Of a stretch of 39,001 nt of DNA, positions 1,583 through 38,522 are shown in pieces. A model generated the notes under the pieces. It did no database searches, was not told where the DNA came from, and was given only the letters and a program-made list of their open reading frames with translations. How positions within the stretch are numbered: the stretch's first letter is position 1; each line of letters begins with the position of its first letter. This DNA comes from a virus, in UHGV virus genome UHGV-0059893; one strand, given 5' to 3'. Position numbers and translations under genes: made by a program.

Positions 1583-1966
1583 TTGTTAAAATTTGATGAA
1601 TATCCTGATAGTTGCCCTCCTGGAAATGCTATCAAGTTTGAAGGAACATTTTATAGACTATGTAAAGGTAACCCTTTTTGCAAAGAAGATTTTCTAACAC
1701 ATTTTGAAGCGGGTTTTAATTTTCCGAGTAGTAAATTATGTGAAGCTATGGCTCTATCTTTTTATGATAGCTATGCTCATGCAGAGTCTCTTAAAAATCA
1801 ATATAGAAAAAAGTTTAAAGATCATTCAATTATACCCGTTAAAATAATTGAAAAGTATGGAGTTGGTATTTTAGAAGAAAAAAAAGGTCATTTGAATCTT
1901 TGGGAGAACAGGAATGTAGATATTTTTTCTGATTTGATAAAGGAAGGTGGAGATAAAGATGGATAA
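1583..1966 (+). CDS. Hypothetical 127-aa protein. It is the first gene of an AT-rich two-gene cassette and appears to use a TTG start.
   Basis: The ORF is open in the six-frame track. An RBS-like GTGGGGA lies 8-10 nt upstream of the TTG. The 3' end overlaps the next gene. By eye the region is much more AT-rich than the flanking genes. No recognisable motifs. Confidence 0.5.
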   Translation: MLKFDEYPDSCPPGNAIKFEGTFYRLCKGNPFCKEDFLTHFEAGFNFPSSKLCEAMALSFYDSYAHAESLKNQYRKKFKDHSIIPVKIIEKYGVGILEEKKGHLNLWENRNVDIFSDLIKEGGDKDG

Positions 1967-3122
1967 TCAATTTTTTTCTAGTTTGGAATATATTTTTATT
2001 TTTGATTATTATGATTCTCCTTTGTTTTTTATTTCTCAAAGTTCAGAAAATAATAGATACTATTTATTTTACTCAATAGATGATGATGCTTATTTTTTTA
2101 GCGAGTTATCTGCTTCTGACATTAATTATTTATTTATGAATCCGAATGGTTATGACATTCTTCATTACCTTAAAGATAAATCAAAACTGAAATTTGTTTT
2201 GATAAGTAAAAAATCTTTTAATACTAAATCTCTTTCTGAATACACGGGTATATTCGATGAAGATATTTATGAAGCTTTTCCACTTGAGAGGTTCCCTATA
2301 GAATACGAATACGTTCATAAAGTAAATTTTAATGAAATTCAAAAAAAATATAAAAGCTATTTTCCTAACTTATTTGACAATGATCAATTAACATTGAGAA
2401 TTAAGGATAAAAAGAATAGTCATTCATTAAACATTGATATAGTTTATAGTGCGTTAAATTTTATGAAAAATACTTGGCAAGATTTGAATAGTAGATATAC
2501 GGATTGGGGTCCTGAAAAAAAATTATTGATGACCGCACCCTCAAAAGGATCATTAAAACTTGAATTTGAATTAGCAAATGATGAACAAACAGCTTTGTTT
2601 TCTGATGAAGCATCTTTCTCAGAATTAATCGATTTTGTAGATAACTTAATGTATACACCGATGTATGATGATGAAGAATTAATAAATGAAAGAAAAATTA
2701 TTGAAGAGACCGTCAAACTATATGAAGTTATTGAAAAAAATGATTTATCAATTGATTTTATTTCTAATGATGTTAAGTTAAGTAATATAAGTAAATCTAG
2801 TAATATTAAAAAAAATCTCGATGTTTTAAAAGCTCGCGTAAATGATAAAATAATAGAAAATAGTACTTTAACCGAAGATATTGAAGTAAGTGGTGAAGTA
2901 TTAGCAGCAAATAAGAGTAAAAATTATTTTAAGATAAAATCATTGGCTTTAGGAGATATTGGTGGTGTTTTTGAAAAAGAATTATTTAAAAAAATAAAAA
3001 ATTCTGAAAAACAAATTACTGTATCTAAGAATATAACAGCTTGTATTACTAAGCAACAAATTACTAATATTGATACAAATGAAATAAAAACTAAGTACGT
3101 TATGACATCATTTGATCAATAA
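1959..3122 (+). CDS. Hypothetical 387-aa acidic protein, the second gene of the AT-rich cassette.
   Basis: RBS AGGAAGGTGG lies 8 nt before ATG 1959 (the track begins at GTG 1947). The ORF is long and uninterrupted, and very AT-rich with many N/K/D/E/I residues. A hairpin terminator follows it. No recognisable catalytic motif. Confidence 0.6.
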   Translation: MDNQFFSSLEYIFIFDYYDSPLFFISQSSENNRYYLFYSIDDDAYFFSELSASDINYLFMNPNGYDILHYLKDKSKLKFVLISKKSFNTKSLSEYTGIFDEDIYEAFPLERFPIEYEYVHKVNFNEIQKKYKSYFPNLFDNDQLTLRIKDKKNSHSLNIDIVYSALNFMKNTWQDLNSRYTDWGPEKKLLMTAPSKGSLKLEFELANDEQTALFSDEASFSELIDFVDNLMYTPMYDDEELINERKIIEETVKLYEVIEKNDLSIDFISNDVKLSNISKSSNIKKNLDVLKARVNDKIIENSTLTEDIEVSGEVLAANKSKNYFKIKSLALGDIGGVFEKELFKKIKNSEKQITVSKNITACITKQQITNIDTNEIKTKYVMTSFDQ

Positions 3123-3906: not shown

Positions 3907-5148
3907 TTATTTTATATCTTTTTTTAATAGTTTTTCAAACGCTGTAGTTGCTGTATCTTTTTCTTTGCGTAAGACATGGCCATAAACATTCATTGTAGTA
4001 TTAAAATCTCGGTGTCCTAATCGTTTTTGAAGCTCTTTTGGAGTCATATTAGGATCGCTAAGCAAATAGGTAGCTGATGTATGTCTAATGTCGTGAAAAC
4101 GAATGTGACGCAAATTGTGACGTTTGGTGAATCGTTTGAACTTCTTATACAGATAACTTCCACGTGGTAAAGTTCCATCTTGTTTTGTATCAAATATAAA
4201 ATAGTGTTTTAATTTCTTTATATCTAATTTCCAACGAATTTTTTTATTCTCTTTGATTAATTCATCTAACATATCAAATAGATAAGCAGGACCGGTTACT
4301 ATTTTTTCATCATCATCATTTTTCAAACCTGGAAGCAACCGAATATCTGATTTTCCATCTACTTCTGAAATCCGCTGATGAAATCTTATTTCTTGTTTGT
4401 CAAAGTCAATATCTTTTTCTTCTAAAGCTGCAATTTCTCCTTGTCTTGCTCCTGTAATAAATGCTAGAACAATTAAAGTTTTAATTTCTATGCTTTCCTC
4501 AAATGCTGCTTTTAGCATTGCATGAATTTCTTCTTCCGAATAAGGTTCTTCGATATTCTTTTTTACGCCTTTTTCTTTTGGTATTTTTACATTTTCCACA
4601 GGATTTTCTTTAATTGCTCCGTACTCATTTTTAGCCATCAAAAATAAGTTGTTAACGGCGTATAACATACGAAGCTTTGTATTTCTTGATAAAGGTTTAT
4701 CAGAGTTTCTTCCAGGATCTTTTGTATTGATTCTTTGAGCATTAACAACAATTTTCTTTATCATGTATGGTTTGATATCGATTAGAGGGATAAAATCAAA
4801 TTTATCAAGAAATCTATTCTCGATCATTCGCTTATAGTTATGATAAGACTTTGGCTCTAAATTTTTTTCGGCCTCTGAAAGCCATATTTTTCTATAAAAT
4901 TCACCAAAAGTTATATTGAATAAATCCAACGAATCATCGGTCATTCCTTCGAATTGCTCTAACCAGATGTTCAATTCTTTATATGCCAATCGTTTACTAT
5001 TCGCTTTTATAGTTTTGCTTTTTCTTTTTGCCGAGCCATCAGGTTTGTATCCTAATACAGCTCTTAGTCTATATGTTTCATTGTCCACTTGTTCTAAGTA
5101 TCCTGTTACTTCTGACATAATTGAATCAGCTCTCTTTCTCTGATACAA
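3907..5148 (-). CDS. int: Tyrosine site-specific recombinase (phage integrase).
   Basis: The C-terminal catalytic signature is present: RFHDIRHTSATYLL (the H-x-x-R box) and NVYGHV (catalytic Tyr). There is an N-terminal arm-binding-like domain. The gene sits adjacent to tRNA-like att elements. The true start may be the internal Met (MSEV...). Confidence 0.95.
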   Translation of the reverse strand: MYQRKRADSIMSEVTGYLEQVDNETYRLRAVLGYKPDGSAKRKSKTIKANSKRLAYKELNIWLEQFEGMTDDSLDLFNITFGEFYRKIWLSEAEKNLEPKSYHNYKRMIENRFLDKFDFIPLIDIKPYMIKKIVVNAQRINTKDPGRNSDKPLSRNTKLRMLYAVNNLFLMAKNEYGAIKENPVENVKIPKEKGVKKNIEEPYSEEEIHAMLKAAFEESIEIKTLIVLAFITGARQGEIAALEEKDIDFDKQEIRFHQRISEVDGKSDIRLLPGLKNDDDEKIVTGPAYLFDMLDELIKENKKIRWKLDIKKLKHYFIFDTKQDGTLPRGSYLYKKFKRFTKRHNLRHIRFHDIRHTSATYLLSDPNMTPKELQKRLGHRDFNTTMNVYGHVLRKEKDTATTAFEKLLKKDIK

Positions 5149-20320: not shown

Positions 20321-20635
20321 ATGTTTAAAAACGAATTGTCTCAAAATCGCTACAGAGAAAAATTACGCCGCTCTTTAATAAGCCAATTGGAAAGTCAGAA
20401 AACAAATATTGAGCCATTCTTAGATAATGTTGATCGTTATATCAGTTTATGGGAAACGGCGATATCACTGGAAGAAGATATATCCGAGAACGGTATTAGA
20501 TTGGAGAATGGTAAAAAGAATGAATCAGTAGCGTTGCTTGTTTCTGTCAACAAACAAATGGGATTGATGTTGGATAAACTTGCCATTACTCCTGAATTGG
20601 TAGGTGAAGCAAATGAATCAATTCCTGAGTTATAA
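20321..20635 (+). CDS. terS: Terminase small subunit (P27 family-like).
   Basis: RBS AAAGGAGGG. 104 aa. Located immediately upstream of, and overlapping, the large terminase gene. Confidence 0.75.
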   Translation: MFKNELSQNRYREKLRRSLISQLESQKTNIEPFLDNVDRYISLWETAISLEEDISENGIRLENGKKNESVALLVSVNKQMGLMLDKLAITPELVGEANESIPEL

Positions 20636-22307
20636 GCATATTGAAAATTGGTTCAAAGCTATAGAAGAAGGCACTATCAAGGTATGCAAAGAACAATTAT
20701 TGCTAAAAAAGTATCTAGAAGAAAGAGTCTTTACTAGAGAAGATATTTACTTCGATATGCAAATGGTAGAGGATTCAATCAATATACCAGCACAATACTT
20801 TCCATTTGAATTAATTCCGTGGGAAAAATTTCTACAATGTTTTATTTATGGATTCCGATGGAAAAAAGATAAAACGCTAGTGTTCAATAGATATCTTTCA
20901 TTAATGGGACGTGGTAATGGTAAAACTGGCTTTGCTTCTTGGAACAATTTTTTCTTGCTGACTGCAAAACACGGTATTAAAAATTATGATATTGATATTT
21001 ATGCCAATAACGAAAGCCAAGCAAAGACTAGTTTTGATGATGTATTTAAAGTAATTAAAGATCATCCTGATTTAGATAAAAAAGTATTTAAAGCTACGAA
21101 GGAAGTTATTCAAAATATCGCTACAAATAGCAAACTTCGTTATAACACGGCAAACGCTAGAACAAAAGACGGGAAGCGACCAGGTGCAAACCGCTTTGAT
21201 GAAATTCACGAAAATGAAGATTATTCAATGATAAATGTGGCTACTTCTGGTGGTGGTAAAATTCGAGATTATAGAGAATTTTATGATACAACTAATGGTC
21301 ATGTTCGTGGTGGTCCGCTTGATGACATTATAGAAGAATCAAAAATGATTCTTTCTGGAGAACTTGGAATTGACAAGGATGGAGCAGAATTTTCTAGTTT
21401 GTTTCCATTTATTTGTCGCTTGGATAACGATAATGAAGTTGATGATCCTGACATGTGGGAAAAAGCTTGTCCAACTATTAATTACAATGCAGATCTAAAA
21501 CGGAAAATGTTTCAAGAATACTCTCAAATGCAACGTAATGCTGGTTTAAGACTTACGTTCATGACAAAACGAATGAACAGACCGATGGAAGACACACGCT
21601 TTGCTGTAGCTTCATATGATGATGTTCTGCATACGAAAGAAAAAGAATTTCCTGAAAAAATGGATGAAGTGATAGGAACAGTCGATTTTGCTGATAGACG
21701 AGATTTTGCCAGCGTTGGGTTGCTAGGAAAATATGATAAAGATGTGTATTTTACACAACATACTTTTATCCACGAATCAGCCCTTCGATTACAAAACATC
21801 AAACGAGAGGTTGTAGATATTTCTATAGATCAAGGTAAATCACAGATCGTTCATGGGAAAAATATAGAAGCAGATTATATCGTAGGTTGGTTTCTTGAAA
21901 TGAGTAACAAATATTACATTAAAAAAATTGCTATGGATATGTACCGTGCAAAAATATTGAAGCCCGCTTTAGAAGAAGCGGGTTTTACTGTGGAAATTGT
22001 TCGAAGCGGATCTGTTACACATGGTATGTTAAAAGATCTGGTTGATGACCTTTTTATTAATCAACGTTTATATTTTGGTGACGATGCGATTATGCGTTGG
22101 TATTGCATGAATGTATATGAAGAGCATATTTCTAATGGAAATATACGCTATGAAAAAATAGAACCTGAAACTAGAAAAACGGATGGCTTTTTTTCATTCC
22201 TTCATGGTTTGAATTTTTTAGATGATATTTATGATTCTGCTCCTGTAACAGTCACAAATAGTTTAGCAGAAAATACAGGAACTGGATTTACTCCTCTAGT
22301 ATTCTAA
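20604..22307 (+). CDS. terL: Terminase large subunit.
   Basis: 567 aa. Walker A-like LMGRGNGKTGFAS. C-terminal nuclease-like region. Conserved position. Confidence 0.9.
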   Translation: MKQMNQFLSYKHIENWFKAIEEGTIKVCKEQLLLKKYLEERVFTREDIYFDMQMVEDSINIPAQYFPFELIPWEKFLQCFIYGFRWKKDKTLVFNRYLSLMGRGNGKTGFASWNNFFLLTAKHGIKNYDIDIYANNESQAKTSFDDVFKVIKDHPDLDKKVFKATKEVIQNIATNSKLRYNTANARTKDGKRPGANRFDEIHENEDYSMINVATSGGGKIRDYREFYDTTNGHVRGGPLDDIIEESKMILSGELGIDKDGAEFSSLFPFICRLDNDNEVDDPDMWEKACPTINYNADLKRKMFQEYSQMQRNAGLRLTFMTKRMNRPMEDTRFAVASYDDVLHTKEKEFPEKMDEVIGTVDFADRRDFASVGLLGKYDKDVYFTQHTFIHESALRLQNIKREVVDISIDQGKSQIVHGKNIEADYIVGWFLEMSNKYYIKKIAMDMYRAKILKPALEEAGFTVEIVRSGSVTHGMLKDLVDDLFINQRLYFGDDAIMRWYCMNVYEEHISNGNIRYEKIEPETRKTDGFFSFLHGLNFLDDIYDSAPVTVTNSLAENTGTGFTPLVF

Positions 22308-23505: not shown

Positions 23506-24154
23506 AGGCACAGTACCGCAAATTTTTATTCAGGGATTTATTGGTTCTAGTTGGTTCTTTGAAGGGAATACTGACAAGGGAATCAAAAATATTTTGGATA
23601 GTCTAGGTGATCAAGAAGAAATTGAAGTAGTGATTAATTCAAACGGTGGAGACGTATTTCAAGGGATTGCTATTGGGAACTTACTTAAGTCAAATAAAGC
23701 AAAAGTTAACGTTGTGATTAACGGCTTAGCCGCTAGTGCTGCTTCAATTATCGCAATGGCTGGCGATACTATAAAAATCTACAACAATGCACAATTGATG
23801 ATTCACCGCGCTTCCACATATGGAGAAGGAAATGTCGATGACTTCCGCACGATTGCTGATCAATTGGAATCAATTGATAAATCGGTAAAGGCTTCATATA
23901 AAACACGATTCAACGGTACAGATGAAGCATTGCAAGAACTTCTTGAAAAAGAATCGTTTATGGATGCAGAAACAGCTTTGAGTTATGGATTGGTCGATGA
24001 AATTATCGATGCAGAAAATAGCGCAGGTACTGAAGCTAATAAAGAACAAAGCGTTGAAGAAATTTTGAATGACGTTGAAGAAAAAAGAGCAGAAAAAATC
24101 GCTGCATTTACAGCAGCATTAAATAAAACATTTGGACAAGGAGATGCAAAATAA
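23468..24154 (+). CDS. ClpP-like (S14) prohead maturation protease.
   Basis: RBS GGAGGTGAGGCGAATG. Motifs VINSNGGDVFQGIAIGN, NGLAASAASIIAMAGD and MIHRAS are typical of the Clp protease fold (catalytic Ser/His). Confidence 0.85.
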   Translation: MTTMKTFLAVKNEGTVPQIFIQGFIGSSWFFEGNTDKGIKNILDSLGDQEEIEVVINSNGGDVFQGIAIGNLLKSNKAKVNVVINGLAASAASIIAMAGDTIKIYNNAQLMIHRASTYGEGNVDDFRTIADQLESIDKSVKASYKTRFNGTDEALQELLEKESFMDAETALSYGLVDEIIDAENSAGTEANKEQSVEEILNDVEEKRAEKIAAFTAALNKTFGQGDAK

Positions 24155-25314
24155 TGACAGTTAAAAATTTAAAAGGTGTAACAGCTGCAAGCGACCAATT
24201 GATGAAAGCTTTTAAAGATGGTAACGAAGAATCTTTTAGCGCAGCTATGGTAAGTTTATCTAAGGAAATTCAGGATAAAATTTTAGAAGAAGCAACAGCA
24301 AAAAATCAAGATCAATTAGTATTAATGAACCGCGGTCAGCGTGTATTAACTACACAAGAAACAAAATTCTATAACGAAGTAGTGAAAAACGAAGGTTTTG
24401 CAGGGGTCGAAGAATTAGTGCCAGCTACTGTATTTGAACGCGTATTTGAAGACCTAGAACAATCTCATCCGCTATTGCAAAAAATTACTTTTGTTAACAC
24501 AACTGGTGTAACAGAATGGATTGTGTCACGTGGTGTCAATCCAGCATGGTGGGGTAAACTTTGCGAAGCTGTTAAAAAAGTTTTAGATAATGGCTTTGAC
24601 GTAATTAACATGAAGCAGTTCAAGCTATCAGGTTATATTCCTGTATGTAAGGCAATGCTTGACTTAGGTCCAGTATGGTTAGATCGTTATGTCCGTACTG
24701 TTTTAGTAGAATCATTGAGAATTGCATTAGAACAAGCAATTGTTGATGGTACTGGTAAAGATATGCCAGTCGGAATGATGCGTGACATGAGCAAACAAAC
24801 TAGCGGAGAATATGCTGAAAAAACAGCAGAACCTATTACAGCTTTAGATGCTGCAACTATGGGCGGTTTGATGGCACGACTATCAAAATTCAATATCGAA
24901 GGTGTAGATGATCCGATTTATCGTAATGTGAATCCTTCTGATGTGGTCCTAATTGTGAATCCAACTGATTACTGGTCTAAAGTATTCCCAGCTAAGACTG
25001 TACTAACTGCTAATGGAGAATATGTACAAGTATTGCCAGTACCAGTTTCAGACTTGCAGTCAACAGCTGTGCCAGAAGGAAAAGCAGTTATTGGGGTAGC
25101 TTCAGATTACTTTATGGGTGTAGGATCTACACTAAAAATTGAAGCTTCAGATGAATACCATTTTGTTGAAGACGAACGCATTTATCTAGCTAAACAATAT
25201 GCAAACGGTCAACCTAAACGTAACGATAGTTTCATTGTATTAGATATTAGCGCTTTGGGAACTACTACTACAACTACAAAACCAACAACCACAACAACTA
25301 CAACACAAGCGTAG
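24154..25314 (+). CDS. Major capsid protein (HK97 fold, with an N-terminal scaffolding/delta-like coiled coil). It carries an unusual C-terminal tail TTTTTTKPTTTTTTTQA.
   Basis: ATGA overlap with the protease gene. 386 aa. Position and size. Poly-Thr C-terminus read directly (25258-25311). Confidence 0.85.
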   Translation: MTVKNLKGVTAASDQLMKAFKDGNEESFSAAMVSLSKEIQDKILEEATAKNQDQLVLMNRGQRVLTTQETKFYNEVVKNEGFAGVEELVPATVFERVFEDLEQSHPLLQKITFVNTTGVTEWIVSRGVNPAWWGKLCEAVKKVLDNGFDVINMKQFKLSGYIPVCKAMLDLGPVWLDRYVRTVLVESLRIALEQAIVDGTGKDMPVGMMRDMSKQTSGEYAEKTAEPITALDAATMGGLMARLSKFNIEGVDDPIYRNVNPSDVVLIVNPTDYWSKVFPAKTVLTANGEYVQVLPVPVSDLQSTAVPEGKAVIGVASDYFMGVGSTLKIEASDEYHFVEDERIYLAKQYANGQPKRNDSFIVLDISALGTTTTTTKPTTTTTTTQA

Positions 25315-25323
25315 GTGATCAGA

Positions 25324-26199
25324 ATGAAGTATATTCTTTGTCAGCCGGCAATCAATCGGTTTAAATGGGAGCTTGAAGTTTGTTTAACTAATCTGAAGAA
25401 ACTAGGAATCAAAGATATCGTATTGCTTTTCAGCAGACACGATGATCAGATTCCTAGTTTTTTTGAGAAGGAATATGGCGTTGAAGTTCATGTGTACGAT
25501 GATCTGCGGGACGACAAAGAGTATATTCCTTCGATTAAACCATATTTATGGTGGAAATATTTAGAAGAAGATCATTCGCGTGAGGATGACCGATATTTCT
25601 ATATCGATTCGGATGTCATTTTCAATAAGAAAATTAATTTGCGTAGATTGCCTTCTAAAGAGGATGTTTGGTATTGTAGCGACTGCTGTAGTTATCTAAG
25701 TCTTGATTATATTAGAGGCTGTGAAAACGGAGAAAATATTCTAAAAGATATGGCAAACATTGTAAATGTAACAGTAGAATCTTTGGAAACTATAAACACT
25801 AATTCAGGAGGCGCACAGTGGGTTATTAACCGTCCTAAAGCGAATTATTGGAAAAAGGTTTATCTAGATTCTAATCGGCTATATCGCTACCTTAGAGGGC
25901 AAAAAACAAATATACAAATCTGGACAGCCGAGATGTGGGCACAGCTTTGGAACATGATGTATTTCAATATTGGTCCTAAAGTTCACGAGGAATTAGACTT
26001 TTGTTTTGCTACTGATCCAATAGAAAAAGTTAAAGAAGTAAAAATCTTGCACAATGCTGGAGTAACAACAGCTGACGAAGATTTATTTTTCAAAGGGAGA
26101 TATGTGACCTCCACGCCTTTTGATGAAGATTTATCATTTGTAAACAAGAAAAAATGCTCTTACGCATATGCTAAAGCAATTAAGGCGGTGGTTAGATGA
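25324..26199 (+). CDS. Hypothetical 291-aa protein with a GT-A-like DxD motif (FYIDSDVIF). It is a candidate glycosyltransferase inserted between the capsid and connector genes.
   Basis: RBS AGGTGA lies 5 nt before ATG 25324 (the track starts at GTG 25315). DSD is at 25606-25614, ~95 residues from the N-terminus and preceded by hydrophobic residues. Such an extra gene in this position is atypical for HK97-like head modules. Confidence 0.6.
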   Translation: MKYILCQPAINRFKWELEVCLTNLKKLGIKDIVLLFSRHDDQIPSFFEKEYGVEVHVYDDLRDDKEYIPSIKPYLWWKYLEEDHSREDDRYFYIDSDVIFNKKINLRRLPSKEDVWYCSDCCSYLSLDYIRGCENGENILKDMANIVNVTVESLETINTNSGGAQWVINRPKANYWKKVYLDSNRLYRYLRGQKTNIQIWTAEMWAQLWNMMYFNIGPKVHEELDFCFATDPIEKVKEVKILHNAGVTTADEDLFFKGRYVTSTPFDEDLSFVNKKKCSYAYAKAIKAVVR

Positions 26200-26507
26200 C
26201 GCCTGAACAAGTGACTGAAGAATTGCTAATGGCTGTGAAGGATAATATTTACGTTACCTGGAACGAAGAAGACGAGTCAATTAAAAAGATGATAGCTAAA
26301 AATGCTGTTTATCTTCAAAGTAAAGTGAGTACAACTCTTTCTTTTTCTCCCGAAAGCTTAGAATACGGATTGCTAATCGAAAGATGTAGATACGACTGGA
26401 ACCGTGCTTTAGATGAGTTTGAGCAGAACTTCGCTAGTGAGTTATTAGGTTTCATTCAACATTATGCGCTACAAGAATATATTGCAGGTGATGGGAATGG
26501 CGAATAA
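26196..26507 (+). CDS. Head-tail connector / DNA-packaging (gp6-like) protein.
   Basis: ATGA overlap. ~100 aa. Conserved position after the capsid gene. Confidence 0.6.
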   Translation: MTPEQVTEELLMAVKDNIYVTWNEEDESIKKMIAKNAVYLQSKVSTTLSFSPESLEYGLLIERCRYDWNRALDEFEQNFASELLGFIQHYALQEYIAGDGNGE

Positions 26508-26850
26508 TCGTAGACTCGAAGAAACGTTCAACGATGGTTGGTTAAAGATTTTGACGCAAACTACCAAAAGAAATGAATTAGGAAAAAAGATTGGTGTAGA
26601 AGATACAGAAATCACTTCTTTAAAATTTAGAAATCTTTCCATGAGAGATAGCGATATAACAGCTATGGATGCGATGGGATCGAAATTAACTAAGAAAGTA
26701 AAGACTCCATTTCATCCAATCGCCAAGAAATTTAATAAAGATCAATATTTTATCGTAATCGATAGTATGCGTTACAACGTTATCTATGCCGATTACGATA
26801 ATTTTTATATCTATTTTTATCTTGAAAGTGTGGGTGAATATGGTGATTGA
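26497..26850 (+). CDS. Head closure / head-tail joining protein.
   Basis: RBS AGGTGA is 8 nt before ATG 26497 (internal Met of the track ORF). ~117 aa. Conserved position. Confidence 0.55.
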   Translation: MANNRRLEETFNDGWLKILTQTTKRNELGKKIGVEDTEITSLKFRNLSMRDSDITAMDAMGSKLTKKVKTPFHPIAKKFNKDQYFIVIDSMRYNVIYADYDNFYIYFYLESVGEYGD

Positions 26851-27241
26851 TAATTCTAAAGAAAAAGAACGTTTAAATACGCAAATTTCTGCTATCAAAA
26901 CTTCCTTAGAAGAACATTTTAAGCTCAAACTCTTTCAAGACTCTGTTGGCGAGGATGAGCTACCTGATGATTTTAATTATTTCATTCTCGAAACAGGAGA
27001 AATAGAAATGATCACTGAACCAAAATATAGCGTGGGTCAAAATCTATATCTAACTTTCTATTCAGAAAATAGAGAAGATTTAACAGGAGATTCACTAGAT
27101 ATTATTTCATTGATTCAAAATCGTTCGATTCGTTTTCAGAGAATGGATCCCAATCATTTAAAACTAGAGAATCAAGATCGCTATATTGATCAACTGGTGT
27201 TTACATTTAGACGATTATTGAAGAGTGATTGTCATGGCTAA
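26840..27241 (+). CDS. Tail-completion / neck protein (HK97 gp10-like position).
   Basis: I place the start at the internal ATG 26840, which overlaps the previous gene by 11 nt. The upstream part of the track ORF is a hydrophobic junk extension. Confidence 0.5.
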   Translation: MVIDNSKEKERLNTQISAIKTSLEEHFKLKLFQDSVGEDELPDDFNYFILETGEIEMITEPKYSVGQNLYLTFYSENREDLTGDSLDIISLIQNRSIRFQRMDPNHLKLENQDRYIDQLVFTFRRLLKSDCHG

Positions 27242-27638
27242 AAATAGTTGGGAGTTAAAAATAAATGGGCATGATGAACTTCTTGTGCGGATGGAACGCT
27301 ATTCAAGTGAGAGCGAACGACTGATTAACGAAGCATTGAAATCAAAGGGTTCAGATATGGCAGTGGATAGGATTACGGAAAAAATTCCTGTTTCTGAAGC
27401 AGATTTAAGAAGAGGACACCAACACGCAAAAAATAGTCGTCCACTTAAGACTCAATATATTAATTTAGGTTTCATCATTAGACCTACAAAAAAATTTGAG
27501 TATTTAAAATATCCTGATTTGGGGATAGGTACTTCTAAAAGAAATCAGCCAGACGAATTCATGAGAAGAGGATTAGGTCTTGCACTTGATCCAATTACAG
27601 AACTTCTGATTCGTCAATTCGATAAATTAAATAAATAG
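27234..27638 (+). CDS. Tail terminator / tail-component protein.
   Basis: I place the start at MAKNSWELK (ATG 27234), overlapping the previous stop. ~134 aa. Conserved position before the major tail protein gene. Confidence 0.5.
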   Translation: MAKNSWELKINGHDELLVRMERYSSESERLINEALKSKGSDMAVDRITEKIPVSEADLRRGHQHAKNSRPLKTQYINLGFIIRPTKKFEYLKYPDLGIGTSKRNQPDEFMRRGLGLALDPITELLIRQFDKLNK

Positions 27639-27649
27639 GGGGAACAACA

Positions 27650-28255
27650 ATGGCTAAAACAACAACTGTAGTAACAACGTTCGATAACGTGAGTATCAAA
27701 CGAATTGCTTTTAATTTTAAGAACGCAGAAAATGCAATCGCAACAGATTGTAACGGACAATTAGATGGCGAAACAGAAATGCAAACGGTGGTTAAAAAAT
27801 GTGGAGCGACAGAAGTAAAATCAAAATCTAAACCAATCAATATGACGGTAACAATTACTGCACATGTACCAATGGAAGTTTATCGACGTTTCAATGGATT
27901 GAGACAAGATGAGCGTATTAAACCAGGTATTTACTCTTACGGTCCTGATTCCGTAGGCGAAGATTTCTCACTTGCTGCAGAGATCGTGGATGACTTCGAA
28001 GAAAATAGCAAGTTAGTTGGTATGTTAGCATGCACTTCAAATACAGGATTAACATTCTCTATTGAAAATGGTGCGGATGAAGTAGCTGCGTTAGAACTAG
28101 AAACAAAAGTTATGCAAGATGAATTTGGTAAATTCTATCATGAAGCAATTGTTGCAGAACTTGAAGAAGACTTAACAGATCAATGGATGACGAATCTATC
28201 TGCTGATGTGATTAAAAAGAGTTCAACAACCACTACTACAACGACACAAGCTTAA
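27650..28255 (+). CDS. Major tail (tube) protein with a C-terminal tail SSTTTTTTTQA.
   Basis: Strong RBS GGGGGAACAACAATG. 201 aa. Position before the chaperone and tape measure genes. Its C-terminal ten residues are identical to the C-terminus of the capsid protein. Confidence 0.75.
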   Translation: MAKTTTVVTTFDNVSIKRIAFNFKNAENAIATDCNGQLDGETEMQTVVKKCGATEVKSKSKPINMTVTITAHVPMEVYRRFNGLRQDERIKPGIYSYGPDSVGEDFSLAAEIVDDFEENSKLVGMLACTSNTGLTFSIENGADEVAALELETKVMQDEFGKFYHEAIVAELEEDLTDQWMTNLSADVIKKSSTTTTTTTQA

Positions 28256-35657: not shown

Positions 35658-38522
35658 ATGGCTAGCAGTTTATATAATTTGGCTTTAGATTTCAGCAAAG
35701 AATTAAACTACACCAAAGCTATTATGGCTCGTCAAGGTGATAAAGGGATTACGGTGACTGTTAAACCGTTTCTAAATGGCTTGCAGATGGATACGAGTGG
35801 CGGAACATTTACTTTAAAAGGAACAACACCATCTAATCGTTACGTAGATAGTGTTGCAACTAGCGTAACTAGTGAAGAAGTCACGTTTTCTCTTGATGGC
35901 ACATTTATGAGTGAAGCAGGATATTATAAACACTGCTACGTAGAATATAGAAAAGACAATCAAATTTTAACAACGCAAGATATCATTTTTTTCTCACTAG
36001 GAGTGTCTGACATTTCGCAAGGCCAAGCCGATGAATACGTTTCGCAATTGGAAGAGTTGATTCGAAAGTATAACGAAACTTTTGATGCTTTTATGGCTGA
36101 AATTAAAGGTAGAGTGGATAGCTTAAATAAACAGATTACTGATTTAACCGGTCAAGCTAAAACGCTACAAGACAAGTTAGATGCTCTGAAAGAAGAAATT
36201 TCTAAATTAGGTAACTTGCAAGTGATGTACAGTAACAGCATCGACTTCGGGGACTATGATTATTCGGGGAACCCGAATATTGCGCCTAATGTAGGTTTTA
36301 ATGATTTCTACAACAATGGCTCTCAAACTGGTTACACTGCTAAAGATGAAGTAGACCACATTGCGGTTACAAGAACTGCAGATGCGCCTCCGGCTGGAAA
36401 ACTATTAAACCTCCGCACATTGTTACCAAACAAAACTTATACTCTCAGCGTTGATATATGGGCGGATATGGAAGTGCCATCTGGCGCGATATCTTGTAGT
36501 ATTCGGTTAAGAGAGGGAACAGAAGTAAGGTCTGTTTGGGCGCTTGTAAACAAACCTGTGGGTACCAATAGAACGACCTATAGCGTTACGTTTACTACAG
36601 CTGCTAATTTTGTGACTACAGAAGAGTCTAGAATATCTTTGTGGTTTAATGATTCAGCTGGTGCATGTACAGGTTATTTAGGCTATAACATCAAAATCGA
36701 AGAAGGTCCAACAGCCACCCCGTACCAGCCAAATCTACTCGATGCACCGTATTATTTGAGTAAGGTGGCTTTGGGTGAGAACATTGCTAATAAGTCTGTG
36801 AAATTTCCAATCACAAGTAGTAGCGAGGGAATCTATTCAAAAAATGCACTAGAGGATTTTGTTTTAGGTGAAACTTATACTGTGACGATAGGGGCGACTA
36901 AGCCTGCCTCACAAACTATTCGGGTTTATTTAGCTCAAAAACAATTTAGTGACTTTAAACCAGTTGAAGGATTGGTTGATACATGGGTCGCCACTGTGTC
37001 AATAACTCAGCTAGGGGAAAACGCAAAAGGGGTATATCTTTTTCAAACGCCAAATACTTCTTTAGGTTCATGTACCATAAAATGGTTAAAAATTGAAAAA
37101 GGCGACACCCGAACTCCTAATATTGAGCAATATAAATACCGAGGAATCGGTATGCGAGACTCAAACAATCCAAAAGATTACGTTTGGGATCTAGCACCAG
37201 AATATGTCGAAGACAATCTTGCTACAGATGTTAAAATTTCTGAAATCACAGGCAAAGCAAATAATTATACCGATGGGAAAGTAGCTATTGTTAACAAAAA
37301 CCTTTCAGATATATCAGCAGACTTAAATAAACAAATAGCTAATAATAAAAATAATATTGCTACTAATACAACGAATATTTCCACTAACACTACCACTATA
37401 GCTACACTACAAAACAAAAATTTATTCACGCAGAATAAAAGTACACATGGCTTAACTTGGATTGCACATAGAGGAAACAATTCAACCGCACCAGAAAATA
37501 GTATTGTAGCTTTCGAAAATGTTTATAGACACCAAGCGATAGAAACAGATATTCAGTTAACAAGCGATAATCGTTGGGTAGTTATGCATGACGAAACAGT
37601 AGACAGAACAACTAATGGTACAGGAAAAATATCAGATATGACCTATGATCAATTTAGAGCCTTAAGAATTGATACAGGTGCTAATATTGATAAGCTAACT
37701 GATGATGAAAAAATTCCACCTAATTTAGAAGAGTTTTTATTGATATGTAAAAAAAATAATAGAATACCAGTTGTTGAAATAAAAGCTACTGGTGGATATA
37801 CAAAAGAGCAACTTCAATTAATTAAAACTATTTCTGATGGAATTGGGATGACTGAAAAAACTATATTTATCAGTTTTAACTACGATATGTTAGTTTTAAT
37901 GCGAGAGATATTTCCTTTTAACGAATTACAGTGGGTATATCAAGGTACAATTAATACAGATGTTATTACAAAATTAAAAACGCTCGGTTTACCTTGCGGT
38001 TTAGATATAAATGAAAATAATGCGTCTCTAACTAAAGATAATGTAAACTTGCTACATGCTAATCGCTTGAAAATTGGCGCGTGGACTGTTGGATATAATT
38101 CTTTTGAAAAGATGAAAGACTTAGGAATAGATTATATCACTACGAATAGTCCATCTGGTTACTTAAAATATGCCGAATTAAGTTTGCTTAACGGTTTTAC
38201 ACCTACTAATGATAATGGCCAAGTCCCACAGTTTGCAGCAGAGTTAGAAGGAGGATATGTTTTTCTAAGCTTCAATGTAAAAGATGGAACAAATAATAAT
38301 CAATTAACAGAAATTGCTAAACTACCTGATTGGGCTATCCCTCATAAAAAACAATATAATCAGTGTATGATACGGACGTCTAGCGGTGTATCACTAGCTA
38401 CTTTTGATACGCAGGGATGGAAACATTCTACGGGTGTAACTGAAGGTACAATTACTATTGGTTTAGGCTGGTCTTCGAGAACTACCTGGGCCGCAGGTCA
38501 ATGTATTTATAAAATAGATTAA
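35658..38522 (+). CDS. Tail fibre / receptor-binding protein with an embedded glycerophosphodiester phosphodiesterase (GDPD) domain.
   Basis: RBS AAGGAGGTATATAAATG. GDPD signature HRGNNSTAPENSIVAFENVYRHQAIETDIQLTSDNRWVVMHDETVDRTTNG (~37440-38170). A coiled-coil region. A low-complexity N/T-rich linker (NKNNIATNTTNISTNTTTIATLQNKN). Confidence 0.8.
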   Translation: MASSLYNLALDFSKELNYTKAIMARQGDKGITVTVKPFLNGLQMDTSGGTFTLKGTTPSNRYVDSVATSVTSEEVTFSLDGTFMSEAGYYKHCYVEYRKDNQILTTQDIIFFSLGVSDISQGQADEYVSQLEELIRKYNETFDAFMAEIKGRVDSLNKQITDLTGQAKTLQDKLDALKEEISKLGNLQVMYSNSIDFGDYDYSGNPNIAPNVGFNDFYNNGSQTGYTAKDEVDHIAVTRTADAPPAGKLLNLRTLLPNKTYTLSVDIWADMEVPSGAISCSIRLREGTEVRSVWALVNKPVGTNRTTYSVTFTTAANFVTTEESRISLWFNDSAGACTGYLGYNIKIEEGPTATPYQPNLLDAPYYLSKVALGENIANKSVKFPITSSSEGIYSKNALEDFVLGETYTVTIGATKPASQTIRVYLAQKQFSDFKPVEGLVDTWVATVSITQLGENAKGVYLFQTPNTSLGSCTIKWLKIEKGDTRTPNIEQYKYRGIGMRDSNNPKDYVWDLAPEYVEDNLATDVKISEITGKANNYTDGKVAIVNKNLSDISADLNKQIANNKNNIATNTTNISTNTTTIATLQNKNLFTQNKSTHGLTWIAHRGNNSTAPENSIVAFENVYRHQAIETDIQLTSDNRWVVMHDETVDRTTNGTGKISDMTYDQFRALRIDTGANIDKLTDDEKIPPNLEEFLLICKKNNRIPVVEIKATGGYTKEQLQLIKTISDGIGMTEKTIFISFNYDMLVLMREIFPFNELQWVYQGTINTDVITKLKTLGLPCGLDINENNASLTKDNVNLLHANRLKIGAWTVGYNSFEKMKDLGIDYITTNSPSGYLKYAELSLLNGFTPTNDNGQVPQFAAELEGGYVFLSFNVKDGTNNNQLTEIAKLPDWAIPHKKQYNQCMIRTSSGVSLATFDTQGWKHSTGVTEGTITIGLGWSSRTTWAAGQCIYKID

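Follow-up and report, generated by a model that had tools for sequence, protein, structure and literature searches.

The window analysed here is the whole 39,001-nucleotide stretch of virus genome UHGV-0059893, which represents an essentially complete temperate siphophage of Enterococcus faecium, a prophage element. Its late operon encodes, in order, terminase, portal, ClpP-type protease, HK97-type capsid, a 291-amino-acid (aa) protein and a phrog_749 connector-region protein, followed by the head-tail adaptor, neck proteins, major tail protein, chaperones, tape measure and Dit, and it ends with a tail protein carrying a Prophage_tail (endopeptidase tail) domain and a tip protein carrying a glycerophosphodiester phosphodiesterase (GDPD) domain. 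The 291-aa gene is the subject of this report. We propose that it probably serves phage-encoded O-glycosylation of poly-threonine C-termini on the capsid and tail-tube proteins, with the acceptor strongly inferred from the comparison of loci. The stretch from capsid to tail tube (24154-28255, 4.1 kb) is 97.5% identical to that of Enterococcus phage 4995_1 (record 38,995 bp), in which the counterpart of the 291-aa gene is labelled hypothetical.

The sequence reading bore out the placement of the gene in the initial annotation, which had described a 291-aa frame ending at 26199 and coupled to the capsid stop through the ribosome-binding site AGGTGA (25313-25318), with a 5-nt spacer before the ATG at 25324. 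The open reading frame (ORF) starts 9 nt past the capsid stop codon, and its own stop, TGA at 26197-26199, overlaps the ATG of the downstream gene (ATGA, 26196). An alternative GTG start is present at 25315; the ATG agrees with the PGAP call in phage 4995_1 and with the N-termini of 42 homologues. The residues D98 and D100, singled out earlier for mutation, fit the numbering from the GTG and become D95 and D97 when counted from the ATG. Four syntenic annotated phages without the gene (BMBtp13, PK5.2, AR1074-1 and PSA; capsids 48-51% identical) run from the capsid to small connector-region genes, so that the gene is an insertion relative to them, consistent with its description as an extra gene wedged between the capsid and connector genes.

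The AlphaFold2 model of the protein, built with 43 homologues, reached a pLDDT of 96.3 and a pTM of 0.92 and forms a single globular domain without a membrane segment. When it was searched against the PDB with Foldseek, the top 50 matches were all glycosyltransferases, including WbbM, UGGT, the blood-group enzymes GTA/GTB, alpha-1,3-GalT and glycogenin (E 2e-8 to 3e-6). Structure comparison scored Gat1 highest (15.3), followed by LgtC and glycogenin (both 15.2), GlyE (14.9), WbbM (14.8), LARGE1 (14.7) and an A. prevotii GT8 enzyme (14.2); next came GT6 enzymes (13.5 and 12.0), a chondroitin synthase chain (12.3) and B3GalT5 (GT31, 11.5), the latter two presumably being the first inverting-type hits. 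Identity to GT8/GT24 enzymes within the structural alignments was 7-13%. Among viral structures (BFVD), members of the family itself came first, followed by GT8-like enzymes of giant viruses and cyanophages. The model thus presents a single Rossmann-like alpha/beta/alpha domain of the GT-A type, with a central mixed beta-sheet, a conserved DxD after a hydrophobic strand and GT8 enzymes as its closest structural neighbours. The predicted fold is almost certainly GT-A, closest to the retaining GT8/GT24/GT6 group, in line with what the initial annotation had supposed.

The earlier assignment had started from the DxD motif, which is indeed located about 95 residues into the protein as D95-S96-D97 within RYFYIDSDVIF. 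On its own the motif carries little weight: the protein contains three D.D sites against 1.7 expected from shuffles, and the strict hhhDxDhh context occurs in 1.4% of shuffles and in 2 of the 52 window ORFs. Support for the glycosyltransferase reading comes from fold, conservation and co-occurrence rather than from the motif alone. Both DxD aspartates are invariant in the 43 homologues, and among 146 divergent representatives drawn from 50%-identity clusters D95 is conserved in 99% and D97 in 100%. In the same set, G163 (100%), A164 (95%) and Q165 (97%) form a second conserved block, W200 and M204 are invariant around position 203, which is D or E in 129/146 (88%), and H243 and K257 do not vary. 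Conservation thereby singles out exactly the residues that a GT-A enzyme would be predicted to need. The role of E203 is presumably that of the acidic residue in the D-Q-D region of GT8 enzymes, by analogy, and the spacing between the DxD and H243 resembles that of LgtC and glycogenin; in GT8 enzymes a histidine some 110-150 residues past the DxD completes the metal site. LgtC and glycogenin have four GT8 motifs that DxD, N-S-G-G, acidic residue, histidine and lysine likewise appear to match in order and spacing, which we treat as a lead only.

No Pfam family matched the 291-aa protein at E<=10, neither NCBIfam nor PADLOC gave a match, and PDB sequences searched with the single protein and with a 43-sequence profile returned no matching chain. 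The protein matched phrog_4417 over its full length (E 2.2e-155; residues 1-289 aligned with positions 1-291 of a 293-position profile), a family annotated as 'unknown function'. On the strength of the model, the enzyme is therefore GT8-like by structure only, without demonstrable sequence membership in any CAZy or Pfam family. The family comprises 906 clusters at 90% identity, with a Pfam domain in 0 of the 120 listed, and 873 representatives of 50%-identity clusters. Among sequenced phages, 77 carry it, with hosts such as Lactobacillus, Enterococcus, Staphylococcus, Lactococcus and Clostridium, and each of these records labels it hypothetical; its hosts span halophiles, dairy bacteria and gut bacteria. 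Single phages of Chryseobacterium and Arcanobacterium carry it beyond Bacillota, in Bacteroidota and Actinomycetota hosts. Among distant relatives, 58 of 150 representatives are approximately 450-800 aa long, with the 291-aa-type domain at the N-terminus and a C-terminal extension; the C-terminal halves tested matched Pfam Glycos_transf_2 or Glyco_transf_7C, most above the gathering cutoff and others near it. Single representatives are fused to a PqqD peptide-recognition element (P0159), to radical SAM plus SPASM domains (P0185) or to Methyltransf_24 (P0251). Given these partners, the orphan domain keeps company with glycan-building and peptide-modifying modules, the last three fusions hinting at glycosylation of peptides in the manner of ribosomally synthesized and post-translationally modified peptides in some relatives.

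The proposed acceptors are homopolymeric threonine tags. When all six frames of the window were scanned for threonine runs of at least six in ORFs of at least 100 aa, only the capsid and the tail tube were found, verifying the shared poly-Thr tags that had been noticed before (T6KPT7QA and SST7QA). The capsid C-terminus reads ...GTTTTTTKPTTTTTTTQA before its stop codon TAG (25312-25314). Both tags finish with T7-Q-A, differing at five synonymous positions and in the stop codon (TAA in the tail tube, TAG in the capsid), which argues against a recent DNA copy. The capsid tag is near-constant in close E. faecium prophages (T6KPT7QA in 53/62). Their tail tubes end in SST7QA at 29 loci and in degenerate forms, TSVVTTTATQSQ at 23 loci and TSVVATTATQSQ at two, with the enzyme gene intact; rare variants alter the endings of both proteins alike (KKA, KKV, RA).

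The co-occurrence of gene and tags, an analysis that the initial annotation had suggested, was then scored across loci. The enzyme-positive sample consisted of 51 loci from different bacterial species, of which the 48 of at least 6 kb were scored, a tag being a same-strand ORF with a threonine run of at least five inside its last 12 residues. At least one tagged ORF was found in 45 of these 48 loci, and at least two in 35. The control comprised 80 viral-contig loci whose capsids are 45-56% identical to the window capsid; the enzyme family occurred in none of the 80, no capsid among them ended in a threonine run of six, and only one of the 76 scored loci carried a tagged ORF (Fisher p 5e-29, a value uncorrected for phylogeny that overstates the case, the loci being non-independent). 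The ORF directly upstream of the enzyme was tagged in 41 of 49 loci, and the position of the enzyme gene tracks the tagged gene: it follows the capsid in enterococcal and Lacticaseibacillus prophages and the tail tube in most Bacillaceae prophages and in Lactococcus phage 1706. The tagged proteins next to the enzyme fall into at least 26 BLAST-unlinked clusters, which include HK97-type capsids, protease-capsid fusions, a phrog_909 head protein, at least two tail-tube families, phrog_749 and small phrog_14018 proteins, so that the tag appears to have been acquired repeatedly, always alongside this enzyme. This near-perfect co-occurrence across unrelated structural families, together with the lack of tags in enzyme-less capsid homologues, supports the reading of an enzyme with its tagged substrates. 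Lineage confounding as the sole cause of the association was considered and rejected on account of the unlinked clusters and of the gene position following the tagged gene.

The same pairing is found in strictly lytic phages carrying tagged proteins (VPE25, SA2 and L. plantarum myoviruses). The tail tubes of the isolated, lytic phages VPE25 and SA2 end in T10AGK and T8P, respectively, and in phage 1706 the capsid ends in T9HHD and the tail tube in T10HHD, with the enzyme gene, orf14, placed after the tail-tube gene. In the L. plantarum myovirus Bacchae (L339 19057-21161), three small ORFs with Thr tags surround the enzyme, and one of these is phrog_14018. Large metagenomic phages whose family members are very distant show the association as well (L159, L184, L191). 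In Bacillaceae prophages carrying the enzyme, phrog_749 homologues of approximately 105 aa are tagged (L099 7912-8226, L106 7861-8178, L120 7872-8207; E 1e-30 to 2e-33).

Several further observations were made on the tagged proteins. The phrog_749 tags in those Bacillaceae prophages end differently (EGV, GGG, VI), and the protein is a third tagged virion protein there. In several halophile prophages (L073, L084-L087), the gene directly upstream of the enzyme belongs to the small tagged phrog_14018 family, suggesting a cassette of two genes, one for the enzyme and one for a small accessory protein that would be glycosylated. In Herelleviridae myoviruses the enzyme is found among replication-region genes. 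In a Candidatus Saccharimonadales metagenome-assembled genome (L129), a 42%-identical copy follows an ORF ending in ...ASTTTTT.

Three of the 48 loci missed the tag criterion. Two are softer cases: S. aureus, with mixed S/T tags, and Listeria fleischmannii, where 12 residues follow the tail-tube threonine run and a Thr-rich extension of the capsid lies in the -1 frame past the stop. The third, Sporolactobacillus, is a weak case with only TTPATTAG. In the Listeria fleischmannii prophage (L103 3029-3217), the capsid stop TCA AAG TAA is followed by a 49-residue Thr-rich extension in the -1 frame (…TTTTSTTTTTTSSPTTTTTTEAPTTSTTTEATTTTTTTTGIKTTKGKK), immediately before the enzyme gene. Slippage at A-AAG could give some of the capsid subunits the tag, reminiscent of the slippage annotated at both cps and tsh of Listeria phage PSA, or this could be a sequencing error.

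The residues that follow the threonine run offered a further clue. Capsid and tail tube have the same post-Thr peptide in 25 of 43 loci, where shuffling gave a mean of 4.1 and at most 12, the matched pairs being QA/QA (window 25306-25311 and 28247-28252), SHA/SHA, GA/GA, KG/KG, EAQ/EAQ and HHD/HHD. Within the last eight codons, 171 of 300 codons at amino-acid-identical positions differ synonymously, and the combination of matched residues with different codons points to selection at the protein level rather than to DNA homogenisation. One agent seems to read both C-termini, a pattern that would fit an enzyme binding each tag at its free terminus, and the matched residues may constitute a recognition code for it. 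Recent gene conversion was also considered for the matched endings and was rejected, the codons differing synonymously. Enzyme-less relatives (L257-L336) and two further loci (L133, L134), all without threonine runs, also share the last two to four residues of capsid and tail tube (PTP/PTP, TTTA/TTSA, TVTP/TVTP, ETP/ETP, QPTP/QVTP), for which a host-encoded modifier or another common partner of both C-termini are possibilities.

Table 1 Features of the window that bear on the proposed glycosylation system.
Feature	Position	Strand	Basis
Terminase	20604-22307		
First proposed substrate, HK97-type major capsid protein of 386 aa	24154-25314	+	phrog_10 E 5.6e-64; TIGR01554 E 7e-18; major capsid protein in phage 4995_1
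Proposed O-glycosylation acceptor, tag T6-K-P-T7-Q-A at the capsid C-terminus	25261-25311	+	Direct sequence reading
Shine-Dalgarno AGGTGA, overlaps the stop codon of the capsid gene; 5-nt spacer to the ATG	25313-25318	+	Direct sequence reading
291-aa predicted GT-A fold glycosyltransferase, sequence orphan (phrog_4417)	25324-26199	+	
D95-S96-D97 DxD motif, predicted ligand of Mn2+ and nucleotide-sugar diphosphate	25606-25614	+	Conservation
E203 in W-T-A-E-M-W, candidate sugar-binding or catalytic acidic residue	25930-25932	+	Conservation
H243 in H-N-A-G, predicted third metal ligand	26050-26052	+	100% conserved in 146 representatives
K257 in F-F-K-G, predicted phosphate-binding lysine	26092-26094	+	100% conserved in 146 representatives; role inferred
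phrog_749 connector-region protein, 103 aa, untagged here	26196-26507	+	phrog_749 E 1.2e-27
Second proposed substrate, major tail (tube) protein of 201 aa	27650-28255	+	phrog_117 major tail protein E 2.6e-18
Tail-tube C-terminal tag S-S-T7-Q-A	28220-28252	+	Direct sequence reading

The fold, the conserved catalytic-type residues, the gene position and the tight association of gene with tags are the observed side of the case; the acceptor role of the tags, the identity of the donor, the anomeric configuration and the benefit are proposals within the following mechanistic model. A soluble, metal-dependent GT-A enzyme would be translated late from the structural polycistronic message, alongside its substrates. 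It would bind a host nucleotide-sugar, probably UDP-hexose or UDP-HexNAc, through the DxD/His/Mn2+ site and move the sugar to the threonine hydroxyls of the presumably disordered tags T6KPT7QA on the capsid and SST7QA on the tail tube, before or during assembly. An alpha linkage is probable, given that the fold is closest to the retaining GT8/GT24/GT6 group. No second glycosyltransferase was found among the window ORFs of at least 200 aa that were scanned, which makes a short glycan of a single sugar type, a monosaccharide or a homo-oligomer on each threonine, the probable product. The finished particle would then bear on its head and tail hundreds of short O-glycosylated tails, forming a dense mucin-like brush.

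C-terminal fusions to the HK97-fold T7 capsid protein are displayed on the surface. In siphophages, C-terminal extensions of the tail tube protrude outside the tube (PMC8718954). For these reasons, and because Listeria phage PSA is annotated as lengthening the same two C-termini, the tags should face outward on the virion surface. The PSA capsid and tail tube are, respectively, 50% and 41% identical to their counterparts in the window, and the annotated ribosomal slippage of PSA extends both proteins (Cps and Tsh), which marks these C-termini as the surface-elaboration sites of the lineage. Such frameshift decoration, in PSA as in SPP1 gp17.1* and T7 10B, adds a recoded polypeptide and not a post-translational glycan, and PSA lacks the enzyme. 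Candidate benefits of the coat include virion solubility or stability, hydration, prevention of aggregation, shielding from proteases or antibodies, and weak adhesion to glycan surfaces. Since the family spans phages of halophiles, dairy bacteria and the gut, a general physical role seems more likely than evasion of mammalian immunity alone.

The mycobacteriophages Che8, Corndog and Myrna add sugars to the proteins of capsid and tail tube with glycosyltransferases of their own, according to the accounts of Freeman et al. 2023 (Cell Host Microbe 31:1216) given in PMC12363180 and PMC12691614. Che8 resembles the system proposed here in that a phage-encoded glycosyltransferase targets capsid and tail tube, which are the most abundant proteins of the surface, and in that both substrates finish with the same two residues (...NKTGS in the capsid, ...YSDGS in the tail tube), echoing the matched endings described above. 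The mycobacteriophage glycans are reportedly located at C-termini. The parts differ: Che8 gp108 (GT2 plus methyltransferase), gp109 (GT2-like) and gp110 (GT25) are all visible to Pfam, whereas the enzyme here has no Pfam match, and a profile comparison of the family by hhalign with gp110, the only Che8 enzyme compared in this way, gave a probability of 0.03% and thus no sign of homology at the profile level. The three Che8 genes lie at the far right end of the genome, approximately 50 kb from their substrates, whereas here a single enzyme gene lies between its proposed substrates in the late operon; the Che8 substrates carry no threonine runs, in contrast to the homopolymeric acceptor-like tags here, and the host belongs to Actinomycetota rather than Bacillota. 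The logic of a phage enzyme acting on the C-termini of capsid and tail tube is therefore common to both, while the enzyme family, the tags, the gene arrangement and the host phylum differ.

Other known systems share single elements with the proposed one. The retaining GT8/GT24 enzymes (LgtC, glycogenin, Gat1, GlyE and the UGGT catalytic domain) are alike in structure, with sequence similarity undetectable here. In mucin-type and serine-rich-repeat O-glycosylation, a nucleotide-sugar transferase acts on dense Ser/Thr hydroxyls in a low-complexity segment and creates a hydrated glycan brush; these systems employ ppGalNAc-transferases and streptococcal GtfA/B plus GlyE, the last of which is among our top structural hits. 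Their acceptors are long internal repeats of secreted or surface proteins, whereas the candidates here are tags of 7-15 residues at the extreme C-termini of virion proteins assembled in the cytoplasm, with the enzyme gene adjacent. Chlorovirus PBCV-1 (A64R), a eukaryotic giant virus, builds atypical N-linked glycans with many enzymes and without a terminal tag. In the literature covered, an incomplete set that leaves room for an earlier description, we came across no account of the family, of phage structural proteins with poly-Thr tags or of virion glycosylation in Bacillota phages. Staining of ten phages of other hosts detected no glycoproteins (PMC12894461).

We considered whether the enzyme might act elsewhere. 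As is well known, prophage GT-A enzymes modify teichoic acids and O-antigens (TarP, Gtr systems), and the present enzyme could glycosylate a host envelope polymer such as wall teichoic acid, lipoteichoic acid or enterococcal polysaccharide, masking receptors so as to exclude superinfection or to keep progeny from sticking to debris, with the tags being unrelated. Late expression would suit the masking of debris, and the GDPD domain in the tail tip protein shows the phage to engage teichoic-acid-type polymers. We nevertheless regard an envelope target as decidedly unlikely. The gene is located inside the head-tail operon, coupled on both sides, and not in a lysogeny or moron region near the integrase (minus strand, 3907-5148), which is 20 kb away; with homologues in strictly lytic phages as well, it does not have the location of a lysogenic-conversion gene of the Gtr or TarP type. 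The model is a soluble, single globular domain without a membrane segment, and envelope modification would leave unexplained the 45/48 versus 1/76 contrast, the adjacency in 41 of 49 loci, the unrelated structural proteins that carry tags and the hosts with different cell walls. The tip or distal tail protein itself (35658-38522, 954 aa; GDPD, E 4e-31) would fit a receptor-binding protein that degrades teichoic acid. A 391-aa ORF (1947-3122) without a Pfam or PHROG match, flanked by the endolysin (51-1328, GH25 plus LysM) and the integrase, is a possible moron or lysogenic-conversion gene.

Sugar transfer to phage DNA, for instance to hydroxymethylated bases as a protection against restriction in the manner of the T-even phages, is a classical role of phage sugar transferases. 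We judge it extremely improbable for the present enzyme: the T4 alpha- and beta-glucosyltransferases have the GT-B and not the GT-A fold, no base-hydroxymethylating or hypermodification-like enzyme was found among the scanned window ORFs, the gene lies in the morphogenesis operon and not among replication genes, and the tag association would remain unexplained. The slot between capsid and connector genes sometimes houses decoration or scaffolding-related genes, and an inactive relic with the GT-A fold could in that place have a structural, scaffolding or decorating function in the head. This too is very improbable, given that the DxD, H243 and K257, an active-site signature, are 99-100% conserved across 50%-identity clusters and that the gene shifts between capsid and tail tube together with the tagged gene. 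A further alternative is a GT-A fold enzyme with another chemistry on the tags, such as sugar-1-phosphate transfer (Stealth/GlcNAc-1-phosphotransferase-like phosphoglycosylation) or nucleotidylylation, or one that glycosylates a different virion or host protein, in which case the tags would be hydrophilic spacers only; we consider this unlikely.

Several points weigh against O-glycosylation of the poly-Thr tags by this enzyme. The assignment of the acceptor is correlative throughout, and the non-independence of loci noted above bears on it. PF01501, the Pfam family of CAZy GT8, gave no hit at E<=10, and an hhalign comparison with human glycogenin-1, for which an approximate sequence was used, reached a non-significant probability of 0.4%, with the DSD placed on the DAD, and we do not count it as evidence. 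The proximity of D95, D97 and H243 at the metal site is an assumption of our reading. Tail tags are degenerate in 25 of 60 close E. faecium prophages in which the gene is intact, meaning that glycosylation of the tail is at least dispensable. One locus (L096) has the gene with only a weak Thr-rich ending. Conversely, many metagenomic phage fragments collected by a T7-x-A-stop scan (L137-L256) have poly-Thr tags with the enzyme family absent from the stretch examined, although these fragments are arbitrary and often end before the neighbouring genes, so that absence from the fragment is not absence from the phage. Such tags may be the substrates of other enzymes, or else they have a function that does not involve glycans, and tagging may extend beyond the reach of this enzyme family. 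Many of these unrelated fragments, among them L157, L188, L165, L233 and L243, have two or three structural ORFs with poly-Thr and matched last residues (...T6A / ...T5A / ...T8A in L157 and L188).

Extending our proposal beyond the window, we lean somewhat towards a broader picture, in which poly-Thr tags make up, with the orphan GT-A enzyme, a portable glyco-tagging module of two parts. Bacillota phages would have attached it repeatedly to unrelated capsid, tail-tube, connector-region and small accessory proteins, and a few phages of other phyla have it as well. In this picture, mucin-like O-glycan coats on virions would be common rather than a mycobacteriophage peculiarity, endings such as QA, SHA and HHD would act as a recognition code, and tags without the enzyme would be served by other transferases.

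The mycobacteriophage work is, to our knowledge, the single experimental study of phage virion glycosylation, and it reportedly saw little sign of glycosylation in the wider phage population. A family invisible to Pfam, NCBIfam and PHROG annotation would account for such a blind spot. If our proposal is true, it describes a widespread and apparently undescribed way for phages to sugar-coat their particles. Carriers of the enzyme include candidates for phage therapy (VPE25-like and Sextaecvirus phages) and dairy phages (1706), so the coat would bear on antibody recognition and clearance in therapy, on the behaviour of phages in mucus and in dairy fermentations, and on the reading of unexplained cryo-EM density or proteomics mass. 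It would also provide a compact, genetically encoded enzyme-tag pair for the glyco-engineering of phage particles and other proteins.

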